Source: an uncultured Candidatus Saccharibacteria bacterium (GTDB taxonomy: Bacteria > Patescibacteriota > Saccharimonadia > Saccharimonadales > UBA4665). Taken from it: 41,897 nt of DNA. The stretch is from assembly GCA_964622365.1 (NCBI GenBank), contig CAZUPM010000002.1, forward strand, positions 1-41,897, written 5' to 3'. A program made the translations under genes and the position numbers. The notes beneath the pieces are model-generated. The model searched no databases and was not told the DNA's origin. It saw only the letters and a program-made list of their open reading frames with translations. Position 1 is the first letter of the stretch. Every line of letters starts with the position of its first letter. Shown here in pieces: positions 2,834 through 24,979 of this stretch.

Positions 2834-3964
2834 ATGGCAACATACAAAGTAATACAAGATATCGAGGCAGAGGACAAGCTGCTGGGGCCGTTGACGCTGC
2901 GTCAATTTATTTACGCTGGCATCACGGCCGTCTGTTTATATATGAGCTTTTTGGTAGTAACCAGAGGCGCCCCTTTTTTAATAATAGTTTTTTTGCCGGT
3001 GGCTCTGCTTTGCGGATTTTTTGCTTTTCCGTGGAAACAAGACCAACCAACGGAAGTCTGGGCGCTGGCCAAGGTCCGCTTTTTCTTTAAGCCGCACAAG
3101 CGTATTTGGAACCAAAGCGGTATTAAAGAGCTCGTTACGATCACCGCACCTAAAAAGGTGGTGGTAGATTACACCGATGGCCTTTCTCAGTCCCAAGTAA
3201 AAAGCCGCCTAAAGGCATTAGCCGACACCATAGACACGCGTGGGTGGGCAATTAAAAATGCCAACGTGAATTTATACAGCCACCCTCAGGCCGAGGCGCA
3301 GCAAGAAGCTAACTCCGACCGGCTTGTTGATCCTTCTGGCTTGCCTCAAGACGTACCGGCAATCGATGTCCAGGCCGCAGATGACATCTTGGACGAAAAA
3401 AGCAATCCTATAGCCCAGCATTTTGACCAAATGATCACCGCTGCCACGGCTACCCATCGTCAGCAGATTACTCAAACACTCAGGAATCAGGCCAACGCAG
3501 CTGCGGGCAATCAGTCGCCGACCGGTAACGCGCCGGCAGATCAAAACCAAGCCCAAAACGATTACTGGTTTATGAGCCAGCCGGGGCAGCAAAGTGCAAC
3601 TCCAAGTGGTTACGTAACATTCAACCCGGCGGTCGTGACGCCGGTAGACAACTACTACGAGCCGGCAGCCGAAACCGCCGAAGAGCAGGCCTTAGCTAAA
3701 AAATTACATGAACTACACGAGCAGCAAACTAAACCTTATAGCGGTTATTCCAACCTGCATACCATACAGCCGCTATCAGAGCGGGCTACAGCTAAAACAA
3801 CTTCGGCTAAAACCGCTAACGCTCCAGTGACACCGACACTTAATCCTGCTATAGTAGAACTTGCCAGCGACAACGACAAAGACGTCGCGACTCTTGCCCG
3901 GCTTGCCAACCAAAAAAAGCCGGCCAACAGTTCGCCGGATGAGGTCGTTATTTCGTTGCATTAA
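2834..3964 (+). CDS. PrgI/VirB3-like T4SS membrane protein with a long low-complexity C-terminal extension
   Basis: The N-terminus MATYKVIQDIEAEDKLLGPLTLRQFIY is followed by two adjacent hydrophobic helices (ITAVCLYMSFLVV, FLIIVFLPVALLCGFFAF). This layout matches PrgI-family/VirB3-like proteins as I recall them. The gene sits upstream of VirB4, as VirB3 genes usually do. Confidence 0.7.
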   Translation: MATYKVIQDIEAEDKLLGPLTLRQFIYAGITAVCLYMSFLVVTRGAPFLIIVFLPVALLCGFFAFPWKQDQPTEVWALAKVRFFFKPHKRIWNQSGIKELVTITAPKKVVVDYTDGLSQSQVKSRLKALADTIDTRGWAIKNANVNLYSHPQAEAQQEANSDRLVDPSGLPQDVPAIDVQAADDILDEKSNPIAQHFDQMITAATATHRQQITQTLRNQANAAAGNQSPTGNAPADQNQAQNDYWFMSQPGQQSATPSGYVTFNPAVVTPVDNYYEPAAETAEEQALAKKLHELHEQQTKPYSGYSNLHTIQPLSERATAKTTSAKTANAPVTPTLNPAIVELASDNDKDVATLARLANQKKPANSSPDEVVISLH

Positions 3965-3994
3965 TACTAAAATTCAAAATTCGGGTGGTCAATA

Positions 3995-4876
3995 ATGAAC
4001 CCAGCAGAGCCCAGCCAGCCGGCAACAGCAGTTTCCGTAGGCGGGACTAATCAGCAAGTAGCTAGTCCGGCGCAGCCTCAAGCTACAATATCGGCGCCTG
4101 TGGCAGGTGGAACAAGTCCAGCCACACGGCCCGCCATACAGCCCCATACAAATCCGAACAGCACGCAAAACGCCCTAGAAATAGCGGAAGTTCGTGACGG
4201 CTTAGTAATTATGAACGATGGCTCTTTTCGCTCCGCCGTGATGGTCAAGTCTATTAATTTTGACCTTATGAGCCCGCAGGAACAAGAGGGGGTCGAATAT
4301 AGCTATCAGGGCTTTTTGAACTCACTTTATTTTCCTGTGCAAATTTACATCCATTCGCAAAAGGTCGACCTGCAACCATACATAGATAAATTGTCCAAAA
4401 TCCGCAACGAGCACGATAACATGTTGTTAGCGATGCTGATGGACGATTATATAAATTTTATCGACCAAATTTCGCAGCAAACTAATATTATGGATAAGCA
4501 TTTTTATGTTGTCATACCTTTTTACCCGACCGTAGATGTACAGAAAACTTTATCCCAAAGCAAAAACTTCTTTTCCGGCGTGTTTACTATGTTTAATAAA
4601 AAAGATAAGCATGTTTCTATAAACGAAGCCGACCTCGAAAACGCCAAGACCGAATTGCGCAACAGGGTCCAGTCTGTGTTAAGTGCCCTGCAGCAATGTG
4701 GCGTCCAGGGGTTGCCGCTTGATACCCAGGAGTTGATTGAACTTTACTACGATACCTATAACCCGGACACCGCTACCCGACAGCAACTTAAAAGCTTTAA
4801 CGGTATGACGACTGAGATTATTACCAAGGGCCAGGGCACTGCTCCGCAGGCCCACCTGGAAGGTGGCTTGCAATGA
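3995..4876 (+). CDS. VirB4 N-terminal-domain-like protein lacking any ATPase domain
   Basis: After a Pro/Ala/Gln-rich leader, the region LEIAEVRDGLVIMNDGSFRSAVMVKSINFDLMSPQEQEGVEYSYQGFLNSLYFPVQIYIHS parallels the N-domain of the next gene (IAPSSIEFNAAYFRLGTRLARTYYVYGYPRQLYTGWISGLVNIDEVLDISMFIYP). There is no Walker A or B motif. A GGGTGG SD-like element lies 6 nt upstream of the ATG. Confidence 0.65.
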   Translation: MNPAEPSQPATAVSVGGTNQQVASPAQPQATISAPVAGGTSPATRPAIQPHTNPNSTQNALEIAEVRDGLVIMNDGSFRSAVMVKSINFDLMSPQEQEGVEYSYQGFLNSLYFPVQIYIHSQKVDLQPYIDKLSKIRNEHDNMLLAMLMDDYINFIDQISQQTNIMDKHFYVVIPFYPTVDVQKTLSQSKNFFSGVFTMFNKKDKHVSINEADLENAKTELRNRVQSVLSALQQCGVQGLPLDTQELIELYYDTYNPDTATRQQLKSFNGMTTEIITKGQGTAPQAHLEGGLQ

Positions 4877-4879
4877 GGC

Positions 4880-4938
4880 AAACTCCAAACTTAAAACTTC
4901 AAACTTCAAACAGTTCAGTGTTTGGTATTTGGCGTTTA
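4880..4938 (+). repeat. Heptamer tandem arrays (AAACTNN x5, then GNNTTTR x3) forming an imperfect hairpin
   Basis: The first array reads aaactcc aaactta aaacttc aaacttc aaacagt (4880-4914). The second reads gtgtttg gtatttg gcgttta (4918-4938). AAAC blocks can pair with GTTT blocks at 7-nt intervals. Confidence 0.85.
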
Positions 4939-4967
4939 AGCTCTACCTCCACAGGAGGCTTCCCCTG

Positions 4968-6899
4968 ATGCTCGGCAAGAAAAAGCAACCTATGGATCCG
5001 GTAGCGCTAGCTCAGGCCCAAAAAACGCGCGAAGACATGGAGGTAACGGCAGCCTTTCAAAAAGGCATTACCGCGCTGCGAGATTTTATTGCGCCCAGCT
5101 CTATAGAGTTTAACGCGGCGTATTTTCGGCTTGGGACACGTTTGGCGCGTACTTATTACGTTTATGGCTACCCTCGCCAGCTTTATACCGGTTGGATAAG
5201 CGGCTTGGTCAACATTGACGAAGTGCTGGATATTTCGATGTTTATTTATCCGGTTGAAAGCCAGGTGGTATTGGAAAACCTCCGCAAAAAAGTCACTCAG
5301 CTGGAGGCTGGCATACAACTTGATTCCGAAAAGGGCCGCGTGCGCGATCCGGGTAAACAAGCCGCCGTGCAGGATGCAGAGGAAATCCGTGACAAACTGC
5401 AGGTCGGCGAGGAACGGTTCTTTCGTTTCGGGCTTTACTTTACGGTTTATGGCAATAACCAGGACGAGCTCGACTTTATTTCGCACAAGATAGAATCAAT
5501 GCTAGGCCAGCAGCTGGTTTATTCCAAGCCTGCCAGTTCGCAGCAAGAGCAGGGCTTAAACAGCACTGTGCCGCAGTTTGACGACCAGCTACAAATCCGT
5601 CGCAATTTTTCAACCGGCGCTCTAAGCACCAGCTTTCCTTTCACAAGCGCGGATTTATCTGACGACAAGGGTGTCCTTTATGGCATTAACATGCATAACT
5701 CGGGCTTGGTGATATTCGATCGCTTTAGCCTGGAAAACGGCAACGCCGTGGTGTTCGCCAAATCTGGTGCCGGTAAAAGTTTTACCGTTAAACTCGAAGC
5801 CTTGCGCAGCCTGATGTTCGGTACGGAAATTTTGATAATCGACCCGGAGAATGAGTACGAACGCATGGCCGAAGCCGTTGGCGGCGCTTACTTACGATTG
5901 AGCCTTAGTTCAAACGCCCGCATTAATCCGTTTGATTTGCCTAAGGTCGTTGACCCCGAGGAAGCCGATAACGCCTTGCGTAGCAATCTAATAACTTTGC
6001 ACGGCCTTTTGCGCCTTATGATGGGCGGGGCGCAGTCACAGCTGCTTGGCGGCAATACCGCGTTAGTGCCCGCGCTAAATCCGGTTGAGGAATCGGACCT
6101 AGACGCCGCTTTGATCGAAACTTATGCCAAAGCCGGCATCACTAACGACCCGTTAACGCATACCGGCACGCCTCCCACTATTTCCGACCTTTACGAAACA
6201 CTGTTGCACATGGGCGGCACCGGGCCGCAACTGGCACAACGTTTGCGTAAATACACTTCCGGCACGTTTGCCGGAATTTTTAGCCAGCAGAGTAATATCG
6301 ATATAAACAATCCCTTGGTCGTCTTTAATGTTCGCGACCTAGAAGATGAGCTTAGGCCGGTGGCCATGTACATCGTGCTTAATTACATCTGGAACAAAAC
6401 TAAGGCCGACAGAAAACGGCGGATTTTAGTCGTGGATGAAGCCTGGCAGCTTATGAAGTATGAAGACAGCGCCAGTTTTTTGTTCAGCCTGGCCAAACGG
6501 GCCCGCAAATACAACCTGGGCATAACTACAATAACCCAAGACGTGGAAGATTTTATGGGTAGCCGGATGGGCCGGGCAATCGTGGCTAACGCTTCGATGC
6601 AGTTTTTGCTTAAACAGTCTACTTCGGCGGTTGACGTTTTGGCGGACGTGTTTAAGCTAACGAGCGAGGAGCGCAAACGCTTAAGCCAGTTCCCCGTTGG
6701 GCAGGGCCTGTTTTTTGCCGGCCCTAATCATGTGCATATCCAGGTTGTGGCCAGCCCGACAGAAACCGGTCTTATTACGACTAATCCAGAGCAAGTCAAG
6801 CAGCTGGAGCAAGCCGGGGAATTAAGTGGCTCACAGGGGACCATTGATTTAGAGAACCGTCTGGCGCCCGGCTCAGCCGGCCTGCCGGTTGGGCAGTAA
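4968..6899 (+). CDS. virB4: VirB4/TrbE/PrgJ-family T4SS ATPase
   Basis: Walker A is AKSGAGKSFTVK and Walker B is RILVVDEAWQLM, preceded by a VirB4-type N-domain. I chose the start at ATG 4968 (MLGKKKQP...), preceded by AGGAGG 9 nt upstream, rather than the GTG at 4863. Confidence 0.9.
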   Translation: MLGKKKQPMDPVALAQAQKTREDMEVTAAFQKGITALRDFIAPSSIEFNAAYFRLGTRLARTYYVYGYPRQLYTGWISGLVNIDEVLDISMFIYPVESQVVLENLRKKVTQLEAGIQLDSEKGRVRDPGKQAAVQDAEEIRDKLQVGEERFFRFGLYFTVYGNNQDELDFISHKIESMLGQQLVYSKPASSQQEQGLNSTVPQFDDQLQIRRNFSTGALSTSFPFTSADLSDDKGVLYGINMHNSGLVIFDRFSLENGNAVVFAKSGAGKSFTVKLEALRSLMFGTEILIIDPENEYERMAEAVGGAYLRLSLSSNARINPFDLPKVVDPEEADNALRSNLITLHGLLRLMMGGAQSQLLGGNTALVPALNPVEESDLDAALIETYAKAGITNDPLTHTGTPPTISDLYETLLHMGGTGPQLAQRLRKYTSGTFAGIFSQQSNIDINNPLVVFNVRDLEDELRPVAMYIVLNYIWNKTKADRKRRILVVDEAWQLMKYEDSASFLFSLAKRARKYNLGITTITQDVEDFMGSRMGRAIVANASMQFLLKQSTSAVDVLADVFKLTSEERKRLSQFPVGQGLFFAGPNHVHIQVVASPTETGLITTNPEQVKQLEQAGELSGSQGTIDLENRLAPGSAGLPVGQ

Positions 6900-6905
6900 T
6901 GTGCC

Positions 6906-9668
6906 ATGGCAGTTTACGACGACCAAAAAGATAAGCAGATCGGTTTAGAAAACCCTCTGACCCCAGACGATAATACCGGGCAGCCTACTGGCTCAGGGCT
7001 GAAACAACTAGAAAACAAAGGGGCCCCTTATACAGCCTCAAATACAAGCGGCCAACAGCCAAGCAAGACCCTCAGCCCGCAAGGTCTACATACTGCTGAG
7101 CAAAAAGCTGGAGCATCTTCTAATACTGCGAGGTCAGACGACACCATCAACTCAAACCTTAACGGCGGTTTTTGGAAAGAAGATAGCAAAACTTCTAATT
7201 CTTCTTCTCGCCTTAAAAAGGCTTTAGCTGTAGCCCAAACTACTGTTTTGGGTAGTCGACGAAAGAAACTGTTGGTTGGCGGAGGAGTGGGTGGCTTAAT
7301 AGCTTTATTCGCTATGATTTTTGGCTTGGGGGGCTTAGTATCGTACGAACTAGTACACATAGAGAAAAACCTCGTCCATTACGAGGCAAAGATTGAACAG
7401 CATTTTGAAAAGGGGGCTGCTAAAAAAATAATTCAGGAAACTATAAGTAGACTTAAAAATAAAAGTGCGGCACAAGACCAACAAGATGCAAGCAAAGAGA
7501 CTGCTAGTGGCGAGGAATTAGCAGCCGAAATGGATAGTTTTGATATCACCAGCCCACAAGTAAAAAGCGATTTAGCAAAGGCTGGTGTAACGGTTGAGAC
7601 CGATGCGGCTGGTAATTTTACCGGCCTTAAAGACGCCCAAGGTAATGATATAACTAACGAAATCGGCACTAACAATGCCCTCTTCGATCAAGTGGAAGCC
7701 GGCTTGCCGGAATGGGACGTGGGACAAATAGAATCTTTTAGAAAAACTATGTATGACTGGGCCGATAGCTCTTTTGATGTTTTGCCGGATTCTGCCAACG
7801 ACAACGGTGCTAAAAAAATTGTGGAGGATACCGTTGCGGAGGGCGCCGATGCTGTACAGGCATCTGAAGCTACATTAGAAGAAGATCAACAACCTCCTGA
7901 TAAGAATGCCACTCCCACGGAACAACAGACCTTTAACGATGCCCAAGGATTGGGTAACGACTTAGTTAATGCCGAAAATACTGTAATGGCAGATGTTAAT
8001 TCCGGCATGAGCGAATCCCAGGCTATTGCCGACGCCACCAGTAAGTTCACCCTAGGTAATACACTACTGGCCAGCGTAATAGTCAGTGATTTGTGCAGTA
8101 TTAAAAAAGTTGCAACAGAAGCCGCCAACAGCAGAGTCCCCGAGATAATCACTTTGCTTATCCGGCATGGTACAACGCTGATAAGTTTGGCGGACCAGAT
8201 TAAATCAGGAAACGTGACCAGCAAAGAGGTAAATCAAGTTATGTCAATTTTTAACGGCAATCCGGCCGCCCAGCCCAATTCAAACGGTACGCCAACAGAA
8301 GCCTCTATGCCCTTTAGTAGCTCTGCCGGCTGGCAGCAAGCAACCAGCGGTTTTGCGGATCCGAGCGCGGCGCAAATACAAAGTTCGGCAATCCCCACAG
8401 CGAATACTGGCACTAACATAGTAAGCGAGATAAATGGATTATTAGATAAGGTATCGGTGCCAGGGATTTCTTTCCTGGGGGCTAACGGAGTATGCGCACT
8501 GGAAAACAGTGCCTTTGGTACCATAGCCAATAGTTTAGGTGGAATAGTACAACTTTTTGGAGATGGTTTTTCGTTCGGCACTAGCCAGGTTATATTTACA
8601 GGTGGTTTAATTTTTGTCCAACACGAGCTGCAAAGCACAATAATCCCCGCCATTCTTCGATACTTCACGCCTATAGGTATAGACGGGCACGAGAACTCCG
8701 TGCAGTGGCTTAATAACGCCGGGGTAGGGCTTAATCTATCTTTTGGTAATTACGCCCGGAGTATAGGTGGCAGCTCGCTCAATAAAAGCCAGGCAGATAC
8801 CTTAACAACTGCCGCCAACAATGCCAACACCATCACCGAATCACGTTTGCCGTGGACAACCCGCATATTTGCGCTTAGCAACCCCCAATCTTTAGCCGCC
8901 CGGTTAGTGGGGGATTTGCCGTTGGGGCTTGATAAAACAGTGTCTAGCATTGCCAGTTACTTTGCCAATCTACCGTCTACCATCTTTCACGGCTTGGCGA
9001 ATATCATATTACATCCGGCTTTTGCCGTCCAAAATAACGCTAATGCCGGATATGTGCAGGGTGTATATGGCATTACCCAATATGGGCTTACTGATAGCGC
9101 TGTAAATAAATATGATCCTATTAGTAATGAACAGTACTTATTTTCCACCGTTTACTATGACGGGCATTCAGCCAGGCGCATAGATATGTTGGGCAATCCC
9201 AATATTTACACGAGTAGTCCATGTAGAAGTGCCACCCAAGGTTGTGATCCTAACAATAATGATTTGCTTCATTGCTATGTGGACAGTTATGCACAGTTAG
9301 CTGATAGTACAGACCATTTAACCGATGCGGCCAAAGAATATTGCGGAGCGGTAGTAGACCCAAATACGGGACTTTTGGTGGGGGGTTTAGGCACGTTTGA
9401 CTGCCAGGACCAAGGGCAAGGCTCTTCCAATGGTACGCAGGCAACTAGTTTTATTAACGACCCGAACTGTATAGATAACCCCGATTATTTCCCTGGCAAT
9501 CAGCAGGTAATACAAATTTACTGCCAGGACCTTGTGGGCAATCCTAACGATCCCGCTTGTGATGCCGCGGTCGCTCCACAAATTCATGATGATGTCGGGC
9601 ATTTTGAACAGTATTTGGTCGACACGCACGTAATGGCAGATTACACAAGTTTAAGTAATAATAAATGA
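6906..9668 (+). CDS. Large single-pass membrane protein with an extracytoplasmic domain and a Cys-rich C-terminal region
   Basis: The 920-aa protein has a Ser/Thr/Gln-rich N-terminal ~115 aa, then the TM helix LLVGGGVGGLIALFAMIFGLGGLV. Further hydrophobic stretches occur near FGTSQVIFTGGLIFV. Eight Cys lie in the last ~170 aa. I recognise no family. Confidence 0.75.
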   Translation: MAVYDDQKDKQIGLENPLTPDDNTGQPTGSGLKQLENKGAPYTASNTSGQQPSKTLSPQGLHTAEQKAGASSNTARSDDTINSNLNGGFWKEDSKTSNSSSRLKKALAVAQTTVLGSRRKKLLVGGGVGGLIALFAMIFGLGGLVSYELVHIEKNLVHYEAKIEQHFEKGAAKKIIQETISRLKNKSAAQDQQDASKETASGEELAAEMDSFDITSPQVKSDLAKAGVTVETDAAGNFTGLKDAQGNDITNEIGTNNALFDQVEAGLPEWDVGQIESFRKTMYDWADSSFDVLPDSANDNGAKKIVEDTVAEGADAVQASEATLEEDQQPPDKNATPTEQQTFNDAQGLGNDLVNAENTVMADVNSGMSESQAIADATSKFTLGNTLLASVIVSDLCSIKKVATEAANSRVPEIITLLIRHGTTLISLADQIKSGNVTSKEVNQVMSIFNGNPAAQPNSNGTPTEASMPFSSSAGWQQATSGFADPSAAQIQSSAIPTANTGTNIVSEINGLLDKVSVPGISFLGANGVCALENSAFGTIANSLGGIVQLFGDGFSFGTSQVIFTGGLIFVQHELQSTIIPAILRYFTPIGIDGHENSVQWLNNAGVGLNLSFGNYARSIGGSSLNKSQADTLTTAANNANTITESRLPWTTRIFALSNPQSLAARLVGDLPLGLDKTVSSIASYFANLPSTIFHGLANIILHPAFAVQNNANAGYVQGVYGITQYGLTDSAVNKYDPISNEQYLFSTVYYDGHSARRIDMLGNPNIYTSSPCRSATQGCDPNNNDLLHCYVDSYAQLADSTDHLTDAAKEYCGAVVDPNTGLLVGGLGTFDCQDQGQGSSNGTQATSFINDPNCIDNPDYFPGNQQVIQIYCQDLVGNPNDPACDAAVAPQIHDDVGHFEQYLVDTHVMADYTSLSNNK

Positions 9669-15289: not shown

Positions 15290-15539
15290 TTTATACCTCC
15301 TGTTTATATAAAAAATTAATTAACTAGTAGAATTTATTATTAGGGCGGTGGATAGTGTGGGAAATCTAACACATAACAGATTGAATTTATAGCCCTGCGG
15401 CTGGTTGTTGGTTGTAGAAAAGGTTGGCATAAACTCCGCAAAAAAGCCCTGGTTTCTCCACAAGCCCCTACAAAAATTTTTCAGCCTGCGGATAAAAAAA
15501 GAATCCGGCCACACCCTCTCCACAATAAAAACACACAAG
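15290..15539. promoter_or_regulatory. dnaA-dnaN spacer: AT-rich unwinding-element candidate plus degenerate DnaA boxes (oriC half)
   Basis: The AT-rich run is 15301-15343. Box-like 9-mers are GGTGGATAG (15347-15355), TTCTCCACA (15454-15462), TGCGGATAA (15487-15495) and CTCTCCACA (15516-15524), judged against TTATCCACA. Confidence 0.5.
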
Positions 15540-16948: not shown

Positions 16949-17072
16949 TTTTCCACATAGTTTGTGATAATTACGCCAACCGGCTGCCAAAACAGCAAAC
17001 AGATGAAAAGTTATCCACGCAACTTAAGCGCCTCTGTTAAATTGTGGAAAAGGATTCAATGTCCGTGGATAA
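16949..17072. promoter_or_regulatory. DnaA-box cluster between dnaA and rpmH
   Basis: Boxes are TTTTCCACA (16949-16957), TGTGATAA (16963-16970), TTATCCACG (17011-17019), TGTGGAAAA (17043-17051) and CGTGGATAA (17064-17072). Confidence 0.6.
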
Positions 17073-17306: not shown

Positions 17307-17346
17307 GGTACCAGGGCTAAAGACAAGCAATCAGTAACTTTTACTA

Positions 17347-17381
17347 CTGTTAACTGTTCGCTGTAACCTGTAAACTGTTGG
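17347..17381 (+). repeat. Heptamer tandem array CTGTNNN x5
   Basis: The array reads ctgttaa ctgttcg ctgtaac ctgtaaa ctgttgg and ends 1 nt before the rnpA ATG at 17383. Confidence 0.85.
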
Positions 17382-17785: not shown

Positions 17786-18736
17786 ATGTTCACGACGATC
17801 ATAGTTCGCCCTATCTTTAACCTGTTAGTGTTTATTTACGCTATTATTCCGGGCCATAACTTCGGTTTGGCCCTGATAATATTCACAATTGTCATACGTT
17901 TCTTGATGTGGCCGCTGGTCAAAAAACAACTCAAACAGGCTAAAGCTATGCGCGAGCTGCAGCCGGAAATCAAAAAAATCAAAAAAGCCGCTGCCGGCAA
18001 CCGGCAAAAAGAGTCACAGATGTTAATGGAGCTATACAAGGAGCGAGAAGTCAGCCCGTTCGGCTCTATCGGCACGCTTATAATCCAGCTAATCATTCTA
18101 ATCGGACTTTATAGCGGTTTACGCAAAGTTGTTTACGACCCTAAGCAGGTCGTCAGTTTTGCCTATCCATTCATACAAAACTTATCATGGATCCACCATT
18201 TGTCCGCTAACATAAAGGACTTTCGTAGCACGCTGTTTGGTTTGGTAAACCTAGATAAGGCAGCCCTAAGCAAGGGCGGCATCTACTGGCCAGCCATGAT
18301 AATCGTGGCAGCCAGCGCCGTAACGCAGTACTTCCAAAGCAAACAACTGATGCCCAGCACCGGCGAATCACGAAAGCTGCGCGATATCCTAAAAGAGGCC
18401 GGCAGCGGCAAAAAAACCGACCAGTCCGAAGTCAATGCCGCGGTGGGGCGGGGCACCCGCTACTTTTTGCCCGTGCTGGTATTCTTCTTTACGGTTAACT
18501 ACCCCTCGGCCTTGAGCTTGTACTGGTTTATGGGCGGTCTGGTGGCTTACATCCAGCAATCGATAGTTTTGCGCGAAGACGTGGCCGAAATTGAAAAAGC
18601 CAGCGAGACTAAACCATCAAAAAATGTTGATAAAATCGTGGAAGGCGAAGTCGTAGAAGTTGAAAGCCGGCAAACCAAAAAACCGAAACCTAAAAAGAAA
18701 AAATCCTCTAAGAATAAGAGGAGAAAAAAGAAATGA
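17786..18736 (+). CDS. yidC: Membrane protein insertase YidC (short Gram-positive type) with a Lys-rich tail
   Basis: The protein is polytopic (PIFNLLVFIY..., LALIIFTIVIRFLMWPL, ...SALSLYWFMGGLVAYIQQ) and ends in the C-terminal tail KKPKPKKKKSSKNKRRKKK. I prefer the ATG at 17786; the TTG at 17774 is an alternative start. Confidence 0.88.
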   Translation: MFTTIIVRPIFNLLVFIYAIIPGHNFGLALIIFTIVIRFLMWPLVKKQLKQAKAMRELQPEIKKIKKAAAGNRQKESQMLMELYKEREVSPFGSIGTLIIQLIILIGLYSGLRKVVYDPKQVVSFAYPFIQNLSWIHHLSANIKDFRSTLFGLVNLDKAALSKGGIYWPAMIIVAASAVTQYFQSKQLMPSTGESRKLRDILKEAGSGKKTDQSEVNAAVGRGTRYFLPVLVFFFTVNYPSALSLYWFMGGLVAYIQQSIVLREDVAEIEKASETKPSKNVDKIVEGEVVEVESRQTKKPKPKKKKSSKNKRRKKK

Positions 18737-18740
18737 GTAA

Positions 18741-18801
18741 ACAGCTAACAGCTAACAGCCTACAGTTAAATCAGCGGAGTTTGCCAACTGTCTACTGTCT
18801 G
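18741..18801 (+). repeat. Heptamer arrays ACAGNNN x4, then inverted CTGTCTN x2
   Basis: The first array reads acagcta acagcta acagcct acagtta (18741-18768). The inverted array reads ctgtcta ctgtctg (18788-18801). Both lie in the yidC-jag spacer. Confidence 0.85.
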
Positions 18802-18822
18802 CTAAAACGAGCGGAATGAGCT

Positions 18823-19498: not shown

Positions 19499-19527
19499 TT
19501 GACGAACTTAGCTAACTTAGCTAATAT
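19499..19527 (+). promoter_or_regulatory. Promoter of the toxin-antitoxin pair, whose spacer is a tandem 9-mer
   Basis: TTGACG (19499-19504), a 17-nt spacer, then TAATAT (19522-19527). The direct repeat AACTTAGCT AACTTAGCT (19505-19522) fills the spacer and runs 1 nt into the -10 box. The ATG at 19535 lies 7 nt after the -10 box. Confidence 0.5.
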
Positions 19528-19534
19528 AATTTAT

Positions 19535-19780
19535 ATGAAGGCAATTACCATACACGACGCTAAAACCAATCTAAGCAAATATATAGCGGACGCTAAAAAA
19601 GGCGATAAGGTTTATATTGGCGGCTTTGGCAAAGCCGAAGTTATGCTGGTTGCGGTAGATAAGCGTGATATAAGCCCTAAACAACGTACATTCAGTGCCG
19701 CTCGGGGCAAGATAGAGGCTAAACCGGACGCCTTTAGCGCTTCAACCGACAAGGCCGTTGAATACCTGCTGCTTGGCTAA
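19535..19780 (+). CDS. Phd/YefM-type antitoxin
   Basis: The N-terminus MKAITIHDAKTNLSKYIADAKKGDKVYI is typical of prevent-host-death antitoxins. The gene lies 9 nt upstream of a PIN-domain gene. Confidence 0.8.
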   Translation: MKAITIHDAKTNLSKYIADAKKGDKVYIGGFGKAEVMLVAVDKRDISPKQRTFSAARGKIEAKPDAFSASTDKAVEYLLLG

Positions 19781-19789
19781 AAGCCCGAC

Positions 19790-20182
19790 ATGAAACTTTT
19801 AATAGATACCCAAGTGTTTGTGTGGCTGATTAACGACAATCAGGCACTGGGCACCAAAGTCAAACGGCTGCTGACTGAGCCGACAAACCAAGTGGCGCTT
19901 AGTTATTTTTCCCTGTTTGAAATAGTTATTAAGACCAGCATTGGCAAAATGGCCTACGACCCTTCGGTCATAGATGACTTGCCCGCGATGGACATCAACT
20001 TTCTATTGCCAACCACTAAACACCTAACCAACTATCAAATCTATGACCAAACCAACAAAGACCCTTTTGATAATATGCTGTTAACGGTGGCCGAAACCGA
20101 AAAACAGGTTTTTCTGACGGCTGATAAAAAAATACTCCAAACCCGCGGTTATACCCACAAACTGATTGACGCCACCAAGTAA
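19790..20182 (+). CDS. PIN-domain (VapC-like) toxin
   Basis: The N-terminus is MKLLIDTQVFVWLIND, and DPFDNMLLTVAETEKQVFLTADKKIL matches the C-terminal acidic PIN motifs. Confidence 0.8.
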   Translation: MKLLIDTQVFVWLINDNQALGTKVKRLLTEPTNQVALSYFSLFEIVIKTSIGKMAYDPSVIDDLPAMDINFLLPTTKHLTNYQIYDQTNKDPFDNMLLTVAETEKQVFLTADKKILQTRGYTHKLIDATK

Positions 20183-22843: not shown

Positions 22844-23650
22844 ATGCAAAAGCTGAAGCAACGCTATTGTTACTCTGTAATTTTGTTGCGCGAACTGGTC
22901 CGGACGGACTTTAAACTTCGTTACCAGGGTTCGGTGCTTGGCTATGTTTGGTCTCTGCTGCGGCCATTCCTATTGTTCTTAACTCTTTACATCGTTTTCG
23001 CCAAATTCCTGAAAATCGGCAACGCCGTGCCGCATTACCCGGTTTACCTATTGCTTGGCATCGTGATGTGGAACTTTTTCGTGGAAGTTTCGGTGGGCAG
23101 CGTGGGCGCAGTAGTGGGTAAGGGCGATCTGCTGCGCAAAATCAATTTCCCTAAATACGTCATCATTCTGGCCGTGGCACTCTCGGCGCTAATCAACCTG
23201 TGCCTTAACGCGGTAGTTATCGCTATTTTTATGGTAGTCGGCCACGTGCACGTTTCACTCCAAGCTCTATGGCTAATTCCACTAATTGCCGAATTATTCA
23301 TCGCCTCGCTGGCGGCGGCCTTCTTTTTAAGCGCGGCCTTTGTGCGCTACCGCGATGTCAGCTATATATGGGAGGTCATCATCCAGGCGGCCTTTTACGC
23401 CACCCCCATACTTTATCCGCTAACCCGTATACCGCACACTGCCGCTAAGTTTTTGATTTTAAATCCTATGGCGCAGATCATCCAGGATGCCCGTTACGTG
23501 CTGGTAACGCATCAAACCCAAACCATCGCCCAGGTTTTTAGTGGCGATTACATCATTTGGGCCATACCAATAGGGCTTACTTTATTGTGCGCCGGGATTG
23601 CCGCCTTCTATTTTCGCCGGCGATCACGGTTCTTCGCGGAGGAAGCATGA
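22844..23650 (+). CDS. wzm: ABC-2 type polysaccharide/teichoic-acid export permease (Wzm/TagG-like)
   Basis: The 268-aa polytopic protein starts ...LVRTDFKLRYQGSVLGYVWSLLRPF, which is typical of ABC-2 permeases. It is paired with the downstream ATPase. Confidence 0.85.
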   Translation: MQKLKQRYCYSVILLRELVRTDFKLRYQGSVLGYVWSLLRPFLLFLTLYIVFAKFLKIGNAVPHYPVYLLLGIVMWNFFVEVSVGSVGAVVGKGDLLRKINFPKYVIILAVALSALINLCLNAVVIAIFMVVGHVHVSLQALWLIPLIAELFIASLAAAFFLSAAFVRYRDVSYIWEVIIQAAFYATPILYPLTRIPHTAAKFLILNPMAQIIQDARYVLVTHQTQTIAQVFSGDYIIWAIPIGLTLLCAGIAAFYFRRRSRFFAEEA

Positions 23651-23653
23651 CGA

Positions 23654-23688
23654 ACAGGTTACAGGTTACAGGTTACAGGTTACAGATA
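23654..23688 (+). repeat. Heptamer tandem array ACAGGTT x4 plus ACAGATA
   Basis: The array reads acaggtt acaggtt acaggtt acaggtt acagata and begins 3 nt after the wzm stop. Confidence 0.9.
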
Positions 23689-23721
23689 ATTTACCAGGTG
23701 CCATTTATCAGTTTTTGTATT

Positions 23722-23781
23722 AAAAATTGGCAATTGATAATTGATAATTCATTGAAAATTGAAAATTGTAAATTGATAATT
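23722..23781 (+). repeat. AT-rich heptamer array NNNAATT, about 8 units
   Basis: The array reads aaaaatt ggcaatt gataatt gataatt catt-gaaaatt gaaaatt gtaaatt gataatt, with one 4-nt phase break. It ends just before the AAGGAGG SD of wzt. Confidence 0.85.
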
Positions 23782-23800
23782 GCCTCCAAAGGAGGTGCCC

Positions 23801-24979
23801 GTGGATGATGCTGCCATAAAGGTGGAGCACGTTTCTAAAGATTTTGTGCTGCCTCACGAAAAGGTAAATTCGGTCAAGGGCGTAGTCACCAGCCTGGCCA
23901 AGGGCCGGGCACCATGGAAGGTCAAAGAAACCCAACACGCGCTCAAAGACGTTAGTTTCGAAGTTAAAAAAGGCGAATTCTTCGGCATAGTCGGCCGTAA
24001 TGGCAGCGGCAAAAGCACGCTGCTTAAAATGATCGCCAATATTTACCTGCCAACCAAAGGCCATATCCACGTCAATGGCAAGTTGGTTCCGTTCATTGAG
24101 CTTGGCGTGGGCTTTAACCCCGAACTTACCGGCCGGGAAAACGTTTACCTAAACGGCGCCATGCTTGGCTTTAGCAAAAGTGAAGTCGCGGCCATGTACG
24201 ACGATATAGTGGCCTTTGCCGAGCTGGAGCGGTTTATGGACCAAAAGCTCAAGAACTATTCGTCCGGCATGCAGGTGCGTCTGGCGTTCTCCATGGCCAC
24301 CCGTTCCAAAGCCGACATCCTTTTGATAGACGAGGTACTGGCCGTTGGCGACGCCGACTTCCAACGCAAATGCTACGATTATTTCAATCATCTGAAAAAA
24401 AATAAGACTACGGTTGTGTTTGTCAGCCATGATATGACTGCTGTGCGGCGGTATTGCGACACAGCGTTTTTGATAGAAAATAGCAAGGTTATAAAGCAAG
24501 GAAGTGCAGACAGTATAGCTGAGGCCTATACGCAATTGTTTCTAGACTATAACGAAAGCAGTGTTAAAAGCACTAACAGCAAAGGTAGTCGGTGGGGTAA
24601 TGGTGATGCTCTAACAAAAAGCATAGACATTGAAATTAATGATGAACGAGTTACCGTTGTTCAAAAGGTGGAATTCAAAAAAGATCTTGAAGACCCCATA
24701 GTCGGTTTTCGTATTCGAAACGAAGAAGGCCAGGAAATAACTGGAACCAACACTTTAATTGAAAGGCTAGATACTTCAGCTACAAAAAAAGGGAACGCAA
24801 CTTTTAAGTGGTCTTTCGAGAACGTATTGCCAGAAGATAAATATTGTATAGACCCTTCGATTCTTAATAAAGATGGCATTACTGTATTAGATTGGTGGAA
24901 TGGCGCCGAGTGGTTTAATATTAAGCGCCGCCGCAGGCTTCCTTATATTATTCAACCCTCTTTTAAAGTTGATAGGTAA
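23801..24979 (+). CDS. wzt: ABC exporter ATPase with a C-terminal glycan-binding-type extension (Wzt/TagH-like)
   Basis: Walker A is GRNGSGKSTLLK, the signature is YSSGMQVRLAFS and Walker B is ILLIDEVLAVGD. A roughly 150-aa beta-rich C-terminal domain follows. I chose the GTG start at 23801, 5 nt after AAGGAGG. Confidence 0.88.
   Translation: MDDAAIKVEHVSKDFVLPHEKVNSVKGVVTSLAKGRAPWKVKETQHALKDVSFEVKKGEFFGIVGRNGSGKSTLLKMIANIYLPTKGHIHVNGKLVPFIELGVGFNPELTGRENVYLNGAMLGFSKSEVAAMYDDIVAFAELERFMDQKLKNYSSGMQVRLAFSMATRSKADILLIDEVLAVGDADFQRKCYDYFNHLKKNKTTVVFVSHDMTAVRRYCDTAFLIENSKVIKQGSADSIAEAYTQLFLDYNESSVKSTNSKGSRWGNGDALTKSIDIEINDERVTVVQKVEFKKDLEDPIVGFRIRNEEGQEITGTNTLIERLDTSATKKGNATFKWSFENVLPEDKYCIDPSILNKDGITVLDWWNGAEWFNIKRRRRLPYIIQPSFKVDR

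Follow-up and report, generated by a model that had tools for sequence, protein, structure and literature searches.

A heptamer-repeat spacer between wzm and wzt in a Saccharibacteria genome and a candidate relay reading frame for translational coupling

How can two genes that nearly always adjoin each other remain coupled when an insertion rich in simple repeats separates them? The question is raised by a stretch of 41,897 nt (contig CAZUPM010000002.1 of assembly GCA_964622365.1; hereafter the window) from a member of the Saccharibacteria (TM7; Patescibacteria/Candidate Phyla Radiation, CPR), in which wzm and wzt, the permease and ATPase genes of an ABC exporter, are separated by 150 nt (positions 23651–23800) that contain two different arrays of tandem heptamers. 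The gene wzm (22844–23650, forward strand) encodes an ABC-2 permease (Pfam ABC2_membrane, 4e-15), and its 3' end reads GCA TGA, the last four bases being ATGA. The gene wzt (23801–24979, forward strand) encodes an ABC ATPase with a Wzt_C domain (Pfam ABC_tran and Wzt_C), and its GTG start at 23801 is supported by alignment of the N-terminus VDDAAIKVE with MDDDIAIKVE of the closest relative (L082). The answer towards which we lean is that the insertion carries a short open reading frame (sORF), termed sORF4, which would act as a relay and keep wzt translationally coupled to wzm.

The insertion and its heptamer arrays

The wzm–wzt gap measures −1 to 22 nt, usually 2–10 nt, in 78 of 79 related loci, which bears out the statement of the initial annotation that permease and ATPase genes of such exporters normally adjoin, and which makes the spacer of the window anomalous. 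The 80 best genomic relatives of this Wzm, at 54–76% identity, are nearly all metagenome-assembled genomes (MAGs) of Saccharibacteria or Patescibacteria, and the closest Wzm in a large protein collection is 86% identical; at 60–86% identity, every relative is a Saccharibacteria MAG. In L082, a 54-kb Logan contig whose Wzm is 86% identical and which keeps the gene order from recF to the glycan cluster, the junction GGAGGAGTCATAAtATG has a gap of 1 nt, and pairwise alignment with the window returns a clean 150-nt insertion in the latter. Because the gap is so short in the related loci and in the closest relative, the spacer is, as judged from these comparisons, a lineage-specific insertion. The former junction is still legible in the 3' end of wzm, where GGAGG (23638–23642, forward strand), the conserved Shine–Dalgarno (SD) sequence of the old wzm–wzt junction, stands 4 nt before the ATG of sORF4; in the L082 alignment (GCGGAGGAGTCATAAtATG) the identical GGAGG serves wzt. 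The sole other long wzm–wzt gap (about 735 nt) was found at 4254–4993 of L019, a contig labelled Dormiibacterota that encodes a Saccharibacteria-like wzm.

All elements of the spacer described here are given on the forward strand. Three nucleotides past the wzm TGA begins a perfect array of 4.6 ACAGGTT units, which is followed by a degenerate ACAGATA (23654–23688; Tandem Repeats Finder (TRF) score 64, with 100% matches at 23654–23685); its unit is free of stop codons in every frame. A non-repetitive linker (23689–23721), single-copy in the window and 82 loci, leads to an AT-rich array (23722–23781) of eight NNNAATT units in two blocks with palindromic CAATTG cores. The units run AAAAATT, GGCAATT, GATAATT and GATAATT, then the 4-nt phase slip CATT (23750–23753), then GAAAATT, GAAAATT, GTAAATT and GATAATT. 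TRF offers alternative periods of 14, 18 and 32 for this array, with a period-7 call at 23732–23782. The array boundaries, the eight units and the 4-nt slip that had been described in the initial annotation were all recovered to the base. Its placing of the array end at the SD of wzt needs a small correction: the AT-rich array stops 8 nt upstream of that SD (GGAGG, 23791–23795), and the intervening bases are the CCTCC arm of the palindrome CCTCCAAAGGAGG (23783–23795), in which the SD is paired with an anti-SD arm inside sORF4.

Part of the AT-rich array recurs elsewhere. The 13-mer AAATTGGCAATTG is common to positions 23723–23735 of the window and 6262–6274 of L082, and (AATTGNN)x3 was found at only two places in 1.35 Mb, upstream of wzt in the window and of jag in L082. 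Each of these sites lies 20–25 nt upstream of a ribosome-binding site (RBS), and the sORF frames differ between the two, so that the shared sequence could reflect either a common mutational bias or a signal at the DNA or RNA level. The sequence GATAATTGATAATTCATTG resembles a Fur box except for a spacing of 7 nt in place of 6 nt.

The window contains further heptamer arrays called by TRF on the forward strand, namely CAAACTT at 4879–4911 (a stop-free unit) between a traC-like gene and virB4, an ACTGTTA-type array at 17346–17379 in the rpmH–rnpA spacer, and AACAGCT at 18740–18759 (extent listed to 18769) between yidC and jag. A tandem-repeat census of the kind proposed in the initial annotation, carried out here on the 42 kb of the host genome in the window, showed enrichment of period 7. 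Perfect period-7 runs of at least 2.5 copies number 5 in these 41.9 kb (11.9 per 100 kb), about 20 times the density in relatives, where 1.27 Mb of related Saccharibacteria loci contain 7 such runs (0.55 per 100 kb; Poisson P = 5e-6). At the same copy threshold the window holds no perfect run of period 5, 6 or 8–12. The closest relatives (Wzm 86%, VirB4 88–90% identity) lack the spacer and nearly all arrays, and intermediate states were not seen. Since one weak array is all that the two closest relatives (L082/L086 and L083) show over about 52 kb, the proliferation of heptamers appears recent and private to the lineage of the window.

Two of these arrays sit, like those before wzt, at junctions that are tight elsewhere. 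The traC-like–virB4 spacer measures 91 nt in the window vs a 1-nt gene overlap in the close relatives L083 and L086, and the yidC–jag spacer measures 86 nt, whereas 44 of 48 relatives have at most 17 nt there (−4 or −13 in most). Between rpmH and rnpA the spacing varies among relatives, from 0 to 117 nt. The edges of the traC–virB4 insertion (4860–4970) are alike, with GGTGGCTTGC..ATG on the left and GGAGGCTTCC..ATG on the right, and in L083 the 5' coding sequence of virB4 (GGCTTGCTCGGCAAAAAACCTAAACTG) is similar to the left edge as well. These likenesses hint at an origin of the insertion by tandem duplication of the junction, with the CAAACTT array growing from it later.

Open frames across the expanded junctions

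The initial annotation regarded the wzm–wzt spacer as pure periodic sequence. The two heptamer arrays stand, yet the spacer is probably not non-coding, for one of its frames is open throughout and joins both genes. This frame, sORF4 (23647–23808, forward strand, 53 codons), starts at an ATG that overlaps the TGA of wzm (ATGA, 23647–23650) and ends at TGA 23806–23808, 5 nt inside wzt (GTGGATGA); its translation is MTNRLQVTGYRLQIIYQVPFISFCIKNWQLIIDNSLKIENCKLIIASKGGARG. Stop codons in the spacer number 0 in the sORF4 frame, 6 and 5 in the other sense frames, and 4, 3 and 2 in the antisense frames. The same arrangement is found at the other two expanded junctions of the window. sORF1 (4873–4968, forward strand, 31 codons) starts at an ATG overlapping the TGA of the traC-like gene (ATGA, 4873–4876), passes through the CAAACTT array and CCTCCACAGGAGG (4946–4958), and ends in a TGA that overlaps the ATG of virB4 (TGATG). 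sORF3 (18733–18819, forward strand, 28 codons) starts at an ATG overlapping the TGA of yidC (ATGA, 18733–18736), passes through the AACAGCT array and ends 3 nt short of the jag start (ATG, 18823). In L082, the yidC–jag junction contains an unrelated spacer of 136 nt that is bridged alike, by 47 codons with GTGA at both ends (the first at 6158–6161). Relative to the downstream start, the sORF stops lie at +5 (wzt), −2 (virB4), −6 (jag) and +1 (jag of L082). No Pfam match was found for the sORF peptides.

The bridging was compared with dinucleotide-preserving shuffles, in which success was defined as an open frame with its stop within 8 nt of the downstream start. The fraction of successful shuffles was 0.115 for sORF1, 0.011 for sORF3, 0.026 for sORF4 and 0.028 for the yidC–jag spacer of L082. 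The joint value for the three junctions of the window is 3e-5. With L082 included, each of the four junctions that were once tight and have expanded carries a bridge in the correct frame, for which the joint shuffle P is about 1e-6. Of the seven remaining co-directional spacers of the window that reach 80 nt or more, none is bridged. Generic rpmH–rnpA and rnpA–yidC spacers 40 nt or longer in Saccharibacteria are loosely bridged in 4 of 47 cases, 0 of them with a start in a −4 overlap (Fisher P = 3e-4). A blind scan of both strands of 1.35 Mb returned nine bridged junctions, three of them in the window and one in L082. Six genes of the window end in ATGA, and every time the ATG opens an ORF, which is a real downstream gene in three cases and an sORF in the other three. 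The rpmH–rnpA array has stops in all three frames and is unbridged, and therefore serves as an internal control; its junction, as noted, is not tight in relatives.

Further analysis revealed that the interruptions of the repeats follow the frame of the sORFs. An array of 7-nt units visits all three frames every 21 nt, and thus any unit that contains a stop triplet produces an in-frame stop by the third unit. The units of ACAGGTT, by far the longest perfect run, and of CAAACTT are both stop-free. The runs with a stop-bearing unit, 4 of 4, end within a base of the position at which that triplet would fall in the sORF frame: the AACAGCT run ends at 18759, where an in-frame TAA would begin at 18760; the AATTGAT run (23732–23749) ends at 23749, where an in-frame TGA would occupy 23749–23751; the ATTGAAA run (23751–23768) ends at 23768, where an in-frame TGA would occupy 23767–23769; and the TGTAAAT run of L082 ends at 6268, where an in-frame TAA would begin at 6269. 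When the eight AT-rich units and the 4-nt slip were permuted, sORF4 was open in 1.2% of the orders (P = 0.012). With the real order of units kept, the slip leaves sORF4 open only in the slot, of nine, that it actually occupies; each of the other eight brings a stop 52–76 nt before wzt. Such a pattern would be expected if slippage keeps lengthening the arrays and selection purges the variants that stop ribosomes at junctions where coupling is critical.

The SD sequences of the downstream genes are also placed within the sORFs (GGAGG at 23791–23795 and 4954–4958). The sequence CCTCCNNNGGAGG occurs twice in the window (4946–4958 and 23783–23795; 0.01 expected) vs once in 1.3 Mb of relatives (L015, 13588–13600), and both copies in the window lie inside sORFs, just before the displaced genes virB4 and wzt. 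The corresponding CCUCCNNNGGAGG hairpins are predicted at −8.5 kcal/mol for wzt and −6.8 kcal/mol for virB4; none is predicted at jag. The downstream RBSs of coupled gene pairs are often silenced by structure, and relief of this silencing by the upstream ribosome is one of two accepted mechanisms of coupling (PMC12548453). Coupling weakens as the distance grows, and even fewer than 20 additional nucleotides can reduce it substantially (PMC12548453). Because coupling falls with distance, an untranslated gap of 150 nt would be expected to abolish it, and the relay ORF would restore it. Termination–reinitiation requires very short distances or overlaps, which are typical for the subunits of heteromeric complexes (PMC12548453, citing Huber et al., 2023); Wzm and Wzt are subunits of one complex.

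On the reading that we prefer, the spacer would be a recent insertion that arose mostly by replication slippage of 7-nt units, members of a repeat class that has proliferated in this Saccharibacteria lineage. It would have persisted because ribosomes read a short relay ORF and so preserved the coupling of wzt. A ribosome translating wzm would terminate at the TGA within ATGA and restart at the overlapping ATG at 23647, or a new ribosome would initiate there from the old GGAGG. It would then translate 53 codons across both heptamer arrays, melt the CCUCCAAAGGAGG hairpin that would otherwise sequester the SD of wzt, and terminate at 23806–23808. Initiation of wzt at its GTG would follow from the unfolding of the RNA, from termination–reinitiation, or from both. 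The sORF4 peptide itself is probably irrelevant filler. CPR bacteria, Saccharibacteria included, have extremely compact genomes and depend to a large extent on overlapping, coupled genes. If correct, the proposal would make the window a record of a repeat-generating mutational process that invades tight junctions, where the surviving insertions are those that ribosomes can read, and hence a sequence readout of selection for coupling. It would also be advisable to check simple repeats in "intergenic" positions within operons for bridging frames before they are called non-coding.

Several points weigh against this proposal. Translation of the sORFs is a prediction from sequence, and both wzt and virB4 possess strong SDs of their own (AAAGGAGGTG and ACAGGAGG), which a hairpin of 5–6 bp may fail to silence; the relay may thus be dispensable. 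The shuffle nulls destroy the arrays, and arrays free of stops make open frames likelier than the shuffles suggest. Taken singly, the traC–virB4 junction reaches a P of only 0.115. The spacing of 4 nt between GGAGG and the ATG of sORF4 is short, and the start overlap by itself is weak evidence, because a TGA stop yields an overlapping NTG start in about 75% of cases by chance. The sample is small, with three junctions in one genome and one in a relative. Finally, neither the whole spacer nor any array-bearing spacer is predicted to fold more stably than its shuffles (z = −1.5 to +1.1). For that reason a structured-RNA reading was also dropped, save for the small SD hairpin; 0 Rfam covariance models matched at the gathering threshold in the whole window, and a scan of the spacer returned no terminator.

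Other readings of the repeats

The arrays might instead, or in addition, make expression variable. The initial annotation suggested that slippage could phase-vary wzt by altering spacing, for which we see no obvious target, because a stop codon precedes the ACAGGTT array and the SD that follows it is distant, and because the promoter-like hexamers are parts of the repeat unit, so that loss or gain of a unit re-creates the same arrangement. What survives of the suggestion is a switch of frame: the gain or loss of one or two units would move the relay into another frame and uncouple wzt, virB4 or jag. This would extend the relay model and not replace it, and we consider it unlikely, though plausible as a mechanism for surface-related genes. 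As at contingency loci, the length of the unit is not divisible by 3, and the perfect 4.6-copy ACAGGTT run is so placed that slippage loses the bridging: in simulation, ±1 or ±2 ACAGGTT units bring the sORF4 stop 80–114 nt before wzt and ±3 units restore the frame, while +1 or −2 CAAACTT units fuse sORF1 in frame to virB4. We would give only limited credence to the idea that heptamer tracts in relay ORFs form an undescribed kind of phase-variation switch, which toggles translational coupling and not a promoter or the frame of the target gene; on this idea a one- or two-unit change would cause termination far upstream and leave the SD locked in a CCUCC/GGAGG hairpin, and a change of three units would restore coupling. 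Among the genes affected are some with surface-structure functions, as is typical of contingency loci, two other Saccharibacteria MAGs have a heptamer array in the orthologous GT4 gene (4.6 perfect copies in L075), and in Haemophilus influenzae heptanucleotide tracts in the promoters or frames of genes for surface structures, hmw1A/hmw2A and TonB-dependent receptor genes, mediate phase variation by slippage that can change the frame (PMC2651432). The tracts of H. influenzae, however, comprise 13–38 units, vs 2.5–4.6 copies here, and 4–5 copies are few for a high rate of slippage; the tract of the window lies on a relay ORF, jag is not typically phase-variable, and the interruptions of the other arrays suggest stabilisation of the frame and not mutability. 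Nor was the variation in copy number that the initial annotation proposed to look for detected: look-ups with Jag and the TraC-like protein led to Logan contigs L087 (yidC–jag) and L088 (traC-like–virB4), whose arrays are 100% identical to those of the window (SRR13766253, SRR10333328), the exact Wzm look-up led to a Logan unitig (L081) that ends inside the ACAGGTT array, so that no copy number could be read there, and Wzt look-ups with two alternative starts gave no match. At the opposite extreme, the repeats might be selectively neutral products of slippage in a non-coding spacer, with wzt translated independently and the open frame due to chance or left over from the insertion, for example from a junction duplication, as the similar edges at virB4 suggest. 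Heptameric simple sequence repeats (SSRs) are a common product of mutation in many bacteria (Mrazek, 2007, as cited in PMC4679880 and PMC4692102), ACAGGTT in four or more copies is found in at least 120 metagenome contigs with a G+C content of 0.32–0.72, the downstream genes have strong SDs, and the rpmH–rnpA array is plainly non-coding. Neutrality is nevertheless improbable in our judgement, since it must accommodate the in-frame bridging of 4 of 4 expanded junctions, the ending of all four stop-bearing runs at the in-frame stop, the placing of the 4-nt slip in the sole permissive slot of nine and the unbridged control spacers.

The remaining readings assign the function to DNA or to an RNA-binding protein, or trace the insertion to a mobile element. 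The initial annotation pointed to a possible internal promoter in the AT-rich array, and its hexamers, TTGAAA (23752–23757) and GATAAT (23775–23780), sigma-70-like and 17 nt apart (23752–23780, forward strand), were found with a 10/12 match to the consensus; a second site matches at 9/12. A broader form of the idea is that the array supplies wzt with its own transcription, either as a promoter of the sigma-70 type or through AATTG/CAATTG sites repeated every 7 bp for a DNA-binding protein, for which the palindromic CAATTG cores and the restriction of (AATTGNN)x3, with its 13-mer, to this site and the region upstream of jag in L082 could be adduced. The functional proposal derives from the consensus match, though, and the region contains 4 promoter-like sites vs 4.8 ± 2.4 in shuffles. 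The hexamers are intrinsic to the repeat unit, and composition therefore accounts for the match; a transcript with its start about 7 nt past GATAAT would have its 5' end within the anti-SD arm; and neither the frame-preserving interruptions nor the two junctions that lack an AT-rich array would be explained. A promoter or operator, which is compatible with the relay model and does not exclude it, is on balance not probable. Single-stranded arrays could alternatively be bound by a repeat-recognising protein of the Csp, S1, CsrA or KhpB/Jag kind that controls translation or stability, as was earlier proposed for the TAACTGA repeats of Beggiatoaceae (PMC4679880). For the ACAGGTT array no structure is predicted (z = +0.31), which allows such a platform and does not support one, an ACAG/CTGT core is common to three arrays, and the rpmH–rnpA array, read as TAACTGT, agrees with TAACTGA at 6 of 7 positions and abuts the start of rnpA, where no SD is visible. 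Against this stand units that differ between junctions and, at one junction, between genomes (ACTGTTA, GCTTTTA and ACTTTAT before rnpA), a core whose orientation is not conserved and the absence of the arrays from the closest relatives, which leaves no conserved regulon; no candidate binding protein was identified, and we regard the platform as very improbable. Least credible of all is a mobile-element remnant, that is, an inserted sequence such as a miniature inverted-repeat transposable element (MITE). The insertion is clean relative to the closest relative, and some imperfect inverted repeats occur in the AT-rich part, but terminal inverted repeats at the insertion edges and a target-site duplication are both absent, the non-repeat part has no second copy in the window or 82 loci, a 22-mer of the linker found no match in JGI metagenome contigs, and the window is free of Rfam matches.

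Known systems and the surrounding region

The relay-ORF reading may be compared with translational coupling as described elsewhere and with its engineered form. The features shared with known coupled pairs are the start in a −4 overlap, the stop at the downstream start, an SD in a predicted hairpin that an upstream ribosome would melt and gene products that are subunits of one complex (PMC12548453). Here, in contrast, ribosomes would pass from gene to gene by way of an intermediate, non-conserved ORF of 28–53 codons derived from repeats. In synthetic bicistronic design (BCD), likewise, a leader cistron holds the downstream SD in its 3' end and its stop overlaps the downstream start, and the helicase activity of the ribosome keeps the RBS open (PMC12548453; PMC6302717; bioRxiv 10.1101/2023.02.09.527918). 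Unlike BCD, the element of the window is natural, is located within an operon, starts by overlap with the upstream gene and not from a 5' untranslated region of its own, and consists of simple repeats. Relay ORFs would thus be a natural counterpart of BCD. If the tracts slip appreciably, they would provide a new route of phase variation for surface glycans and secretion machinery in an epibiont; in particular, if the coupling switch discussed above is real, an epibiont whose genome is minimal could subject its surface glycan export (wzt) and its type IV secretion ATPase (virB4) to stochastic variation. Genetic manipulation is feasible in some Saccharibacteria (PMC10633639).

The repeats themselves belong to the class of long SSRs (LSSRs), defined as tandem repeats with a unit of 5–11 nt (Mrazek, Guo and Shah, 2007), in that the window contains tandem 7-nt units and favours period 7 over neighbouring periods. 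Heptanucleotide SSRs are the over-represented LSSR class in scattered lineages, including Burkholderia, Xanthomonas, Nostoc and Beggiatoaceae, for which polymerase slippage has been proposed as the cause (Mrazek, 2007, as cited in PMC4679880 and PMC4692102). According to these papers, the heptamer repeats of Nostoc occur inside operons, for example between pecE and pecF, sometimes as inverted pairs, and are labile between close relatives (PMC4692102), and the TAACTGA repeats of Beggiatoaceae, which are direct repeats, lie within a few nucleotides upstream of start codons, where they take the place of an SD (PMC4679880). The window resembles these systems, namely the short tandemly repeated repetitive (STRR) elements, the GGGAATC-type repeats of Xanthomonas and Nostoc and the TAACTGA repeats, in the few to several copies of 7-nt units, the lineage-specific over-representation and the intergenic or intra-operon sites. 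It differs from them in its CPR host, in the presence of at least five units within 42 kb with none dominant, and in arrays that lie at expanded, formerly tight junctions, inside a frame joined to both genes, with interruptions that track this frame. The excerpts of PMC4679880 and PMC4692102 make no mention of any relationship between arrays and reading frames. The arrays before wzt differ from the Beggiatoaceae type in their units and in their distance of 8–115 nt from a start with a strong SD; only the rpmH–rnpA array, 3 nt before the rnpA ATG, is similar.

The initial annotation also noted a likeness to the STRR elements of cyanobacteria. The likeness holds at the level of the heptanucleotide SSR class and does not extend further, since the units differ and the host is not a cyanobacterium. 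STRR elements are found in heterocystous cyanobacteria at about a hundred copies per genome, and their units were reportedly described by Mazel and co-workers in 1990 as CCCCAGT (STRR1), TTGGTCA (STRR2) and CAACAGT (STRR3). The units of the window are ACAGGTT, NNNAATT, CAAACTT, AACAGCT and ACTGTTA, the nearest being the reverse complement of the rpmH–rnpA array, TAACAGT, which agrees with STRR3 at 6 of 7 positions. A literature search for heptamer or tandem repeats in Saccharibacteria, Patescibacteria or CPR bacteria found no report. With the window, the patchy distribution of heptanucleotide enrichment extends to Patescibacteria. Known kinds of element are combined here in a new way, namely heptameric SSRs with translational coupling through a putative relay ORF built of repeats, in a phylum from which neither is known to have been described.

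Heptamers before rnpA recur in related genomes in a different form. An array stands directly before rnpA in 3 of about 43 Saccharibacteria genomes, each with its own unit (ACTGTTA at 17346–17379 of the window, GCTTTTA at 4968–4998 of L039 and ACTTTAT at 3320–3352 of L079), and none of them is bridged by an ORF; a conserved pre-rnpA feature was rejected on account of the low number of genomes and the different units. Written as TAACTGT, the array of the window shares 6 of 7 positions with the Beggiatoaceae TAACTGA, which likewise directly precedes start codons. The arrays in the orthologous GT4 glycosyltransferase gene lie at 5476–5507 of L075 (GTTCAAA, 4.6 perfect copies on the coding strand) and at 2869–2902 of L065 (GAAAGTT, 4.9 copies). 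They occupy a variable inter-domain linker of almost unchanged length and leave the ORFs intact; a slip of one unit would shift the frame of a glycan gene.

A two-unit heptamer, AAAATTC AAAATTC (3969–3982), is present in the 30-nt spacer between a prgI-like gene and the traC-like gene, and its composition is like that of the AT-rich array. Behind each of the arrays before virB4 and jag stands an incomplete, inverted copy of its unit (CAAAC...GTTTGGTATTTGGCGTTTAAG within 4877–4964 and AACAGCT...AACTGTCTACTGTCTGCT within 18737–18822), which gives an imperfect potential for hairpins whose folds are not more stable than those of shuffles. The metagenome contigs from JGI that contain ACAGGTT in four or more copies (L089–L168 among them) have up to 18 copies, often with degenerate flanking units such as GCAGGTT, ACGGGTT or ACAGGGG, and in assembly JAESFL01 (about 0.7 GC) the array occurs on at least 8 contigs. 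Because the unit is widespread in unrelated organisms, ACAGGTT is not diagnostic of the lineage.

The window as a whole contains dnaA, dnaN and recF opposite rpmH, rnpA, yidC and jag, a layout that marks the region of the replication origin, together with a cluster like those of type IV secretion and a glycan cluster (GT4/GT2 transferases, gmd, wzm and wzt). DnaA-box-like 9-mers with at most one mismatch to TTATCCACA flank dnaA at 15454–15495 and 16949–17072, where 6 of the 14 matches in the window are found; this suggests an origin in the dnaA–rpmH interval, the dnaN–dnaA interval or both. Positions 19499–20182, which lie between jag and the GT4 gene, encode a PhdYeFM-like antitoxin and a PIN-domain toxin. 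This pair is absent from L082, where jag (6298–6765) abuts the GT4 gene (6766–7848), and it represents a second lineage-specific insertion in the region.

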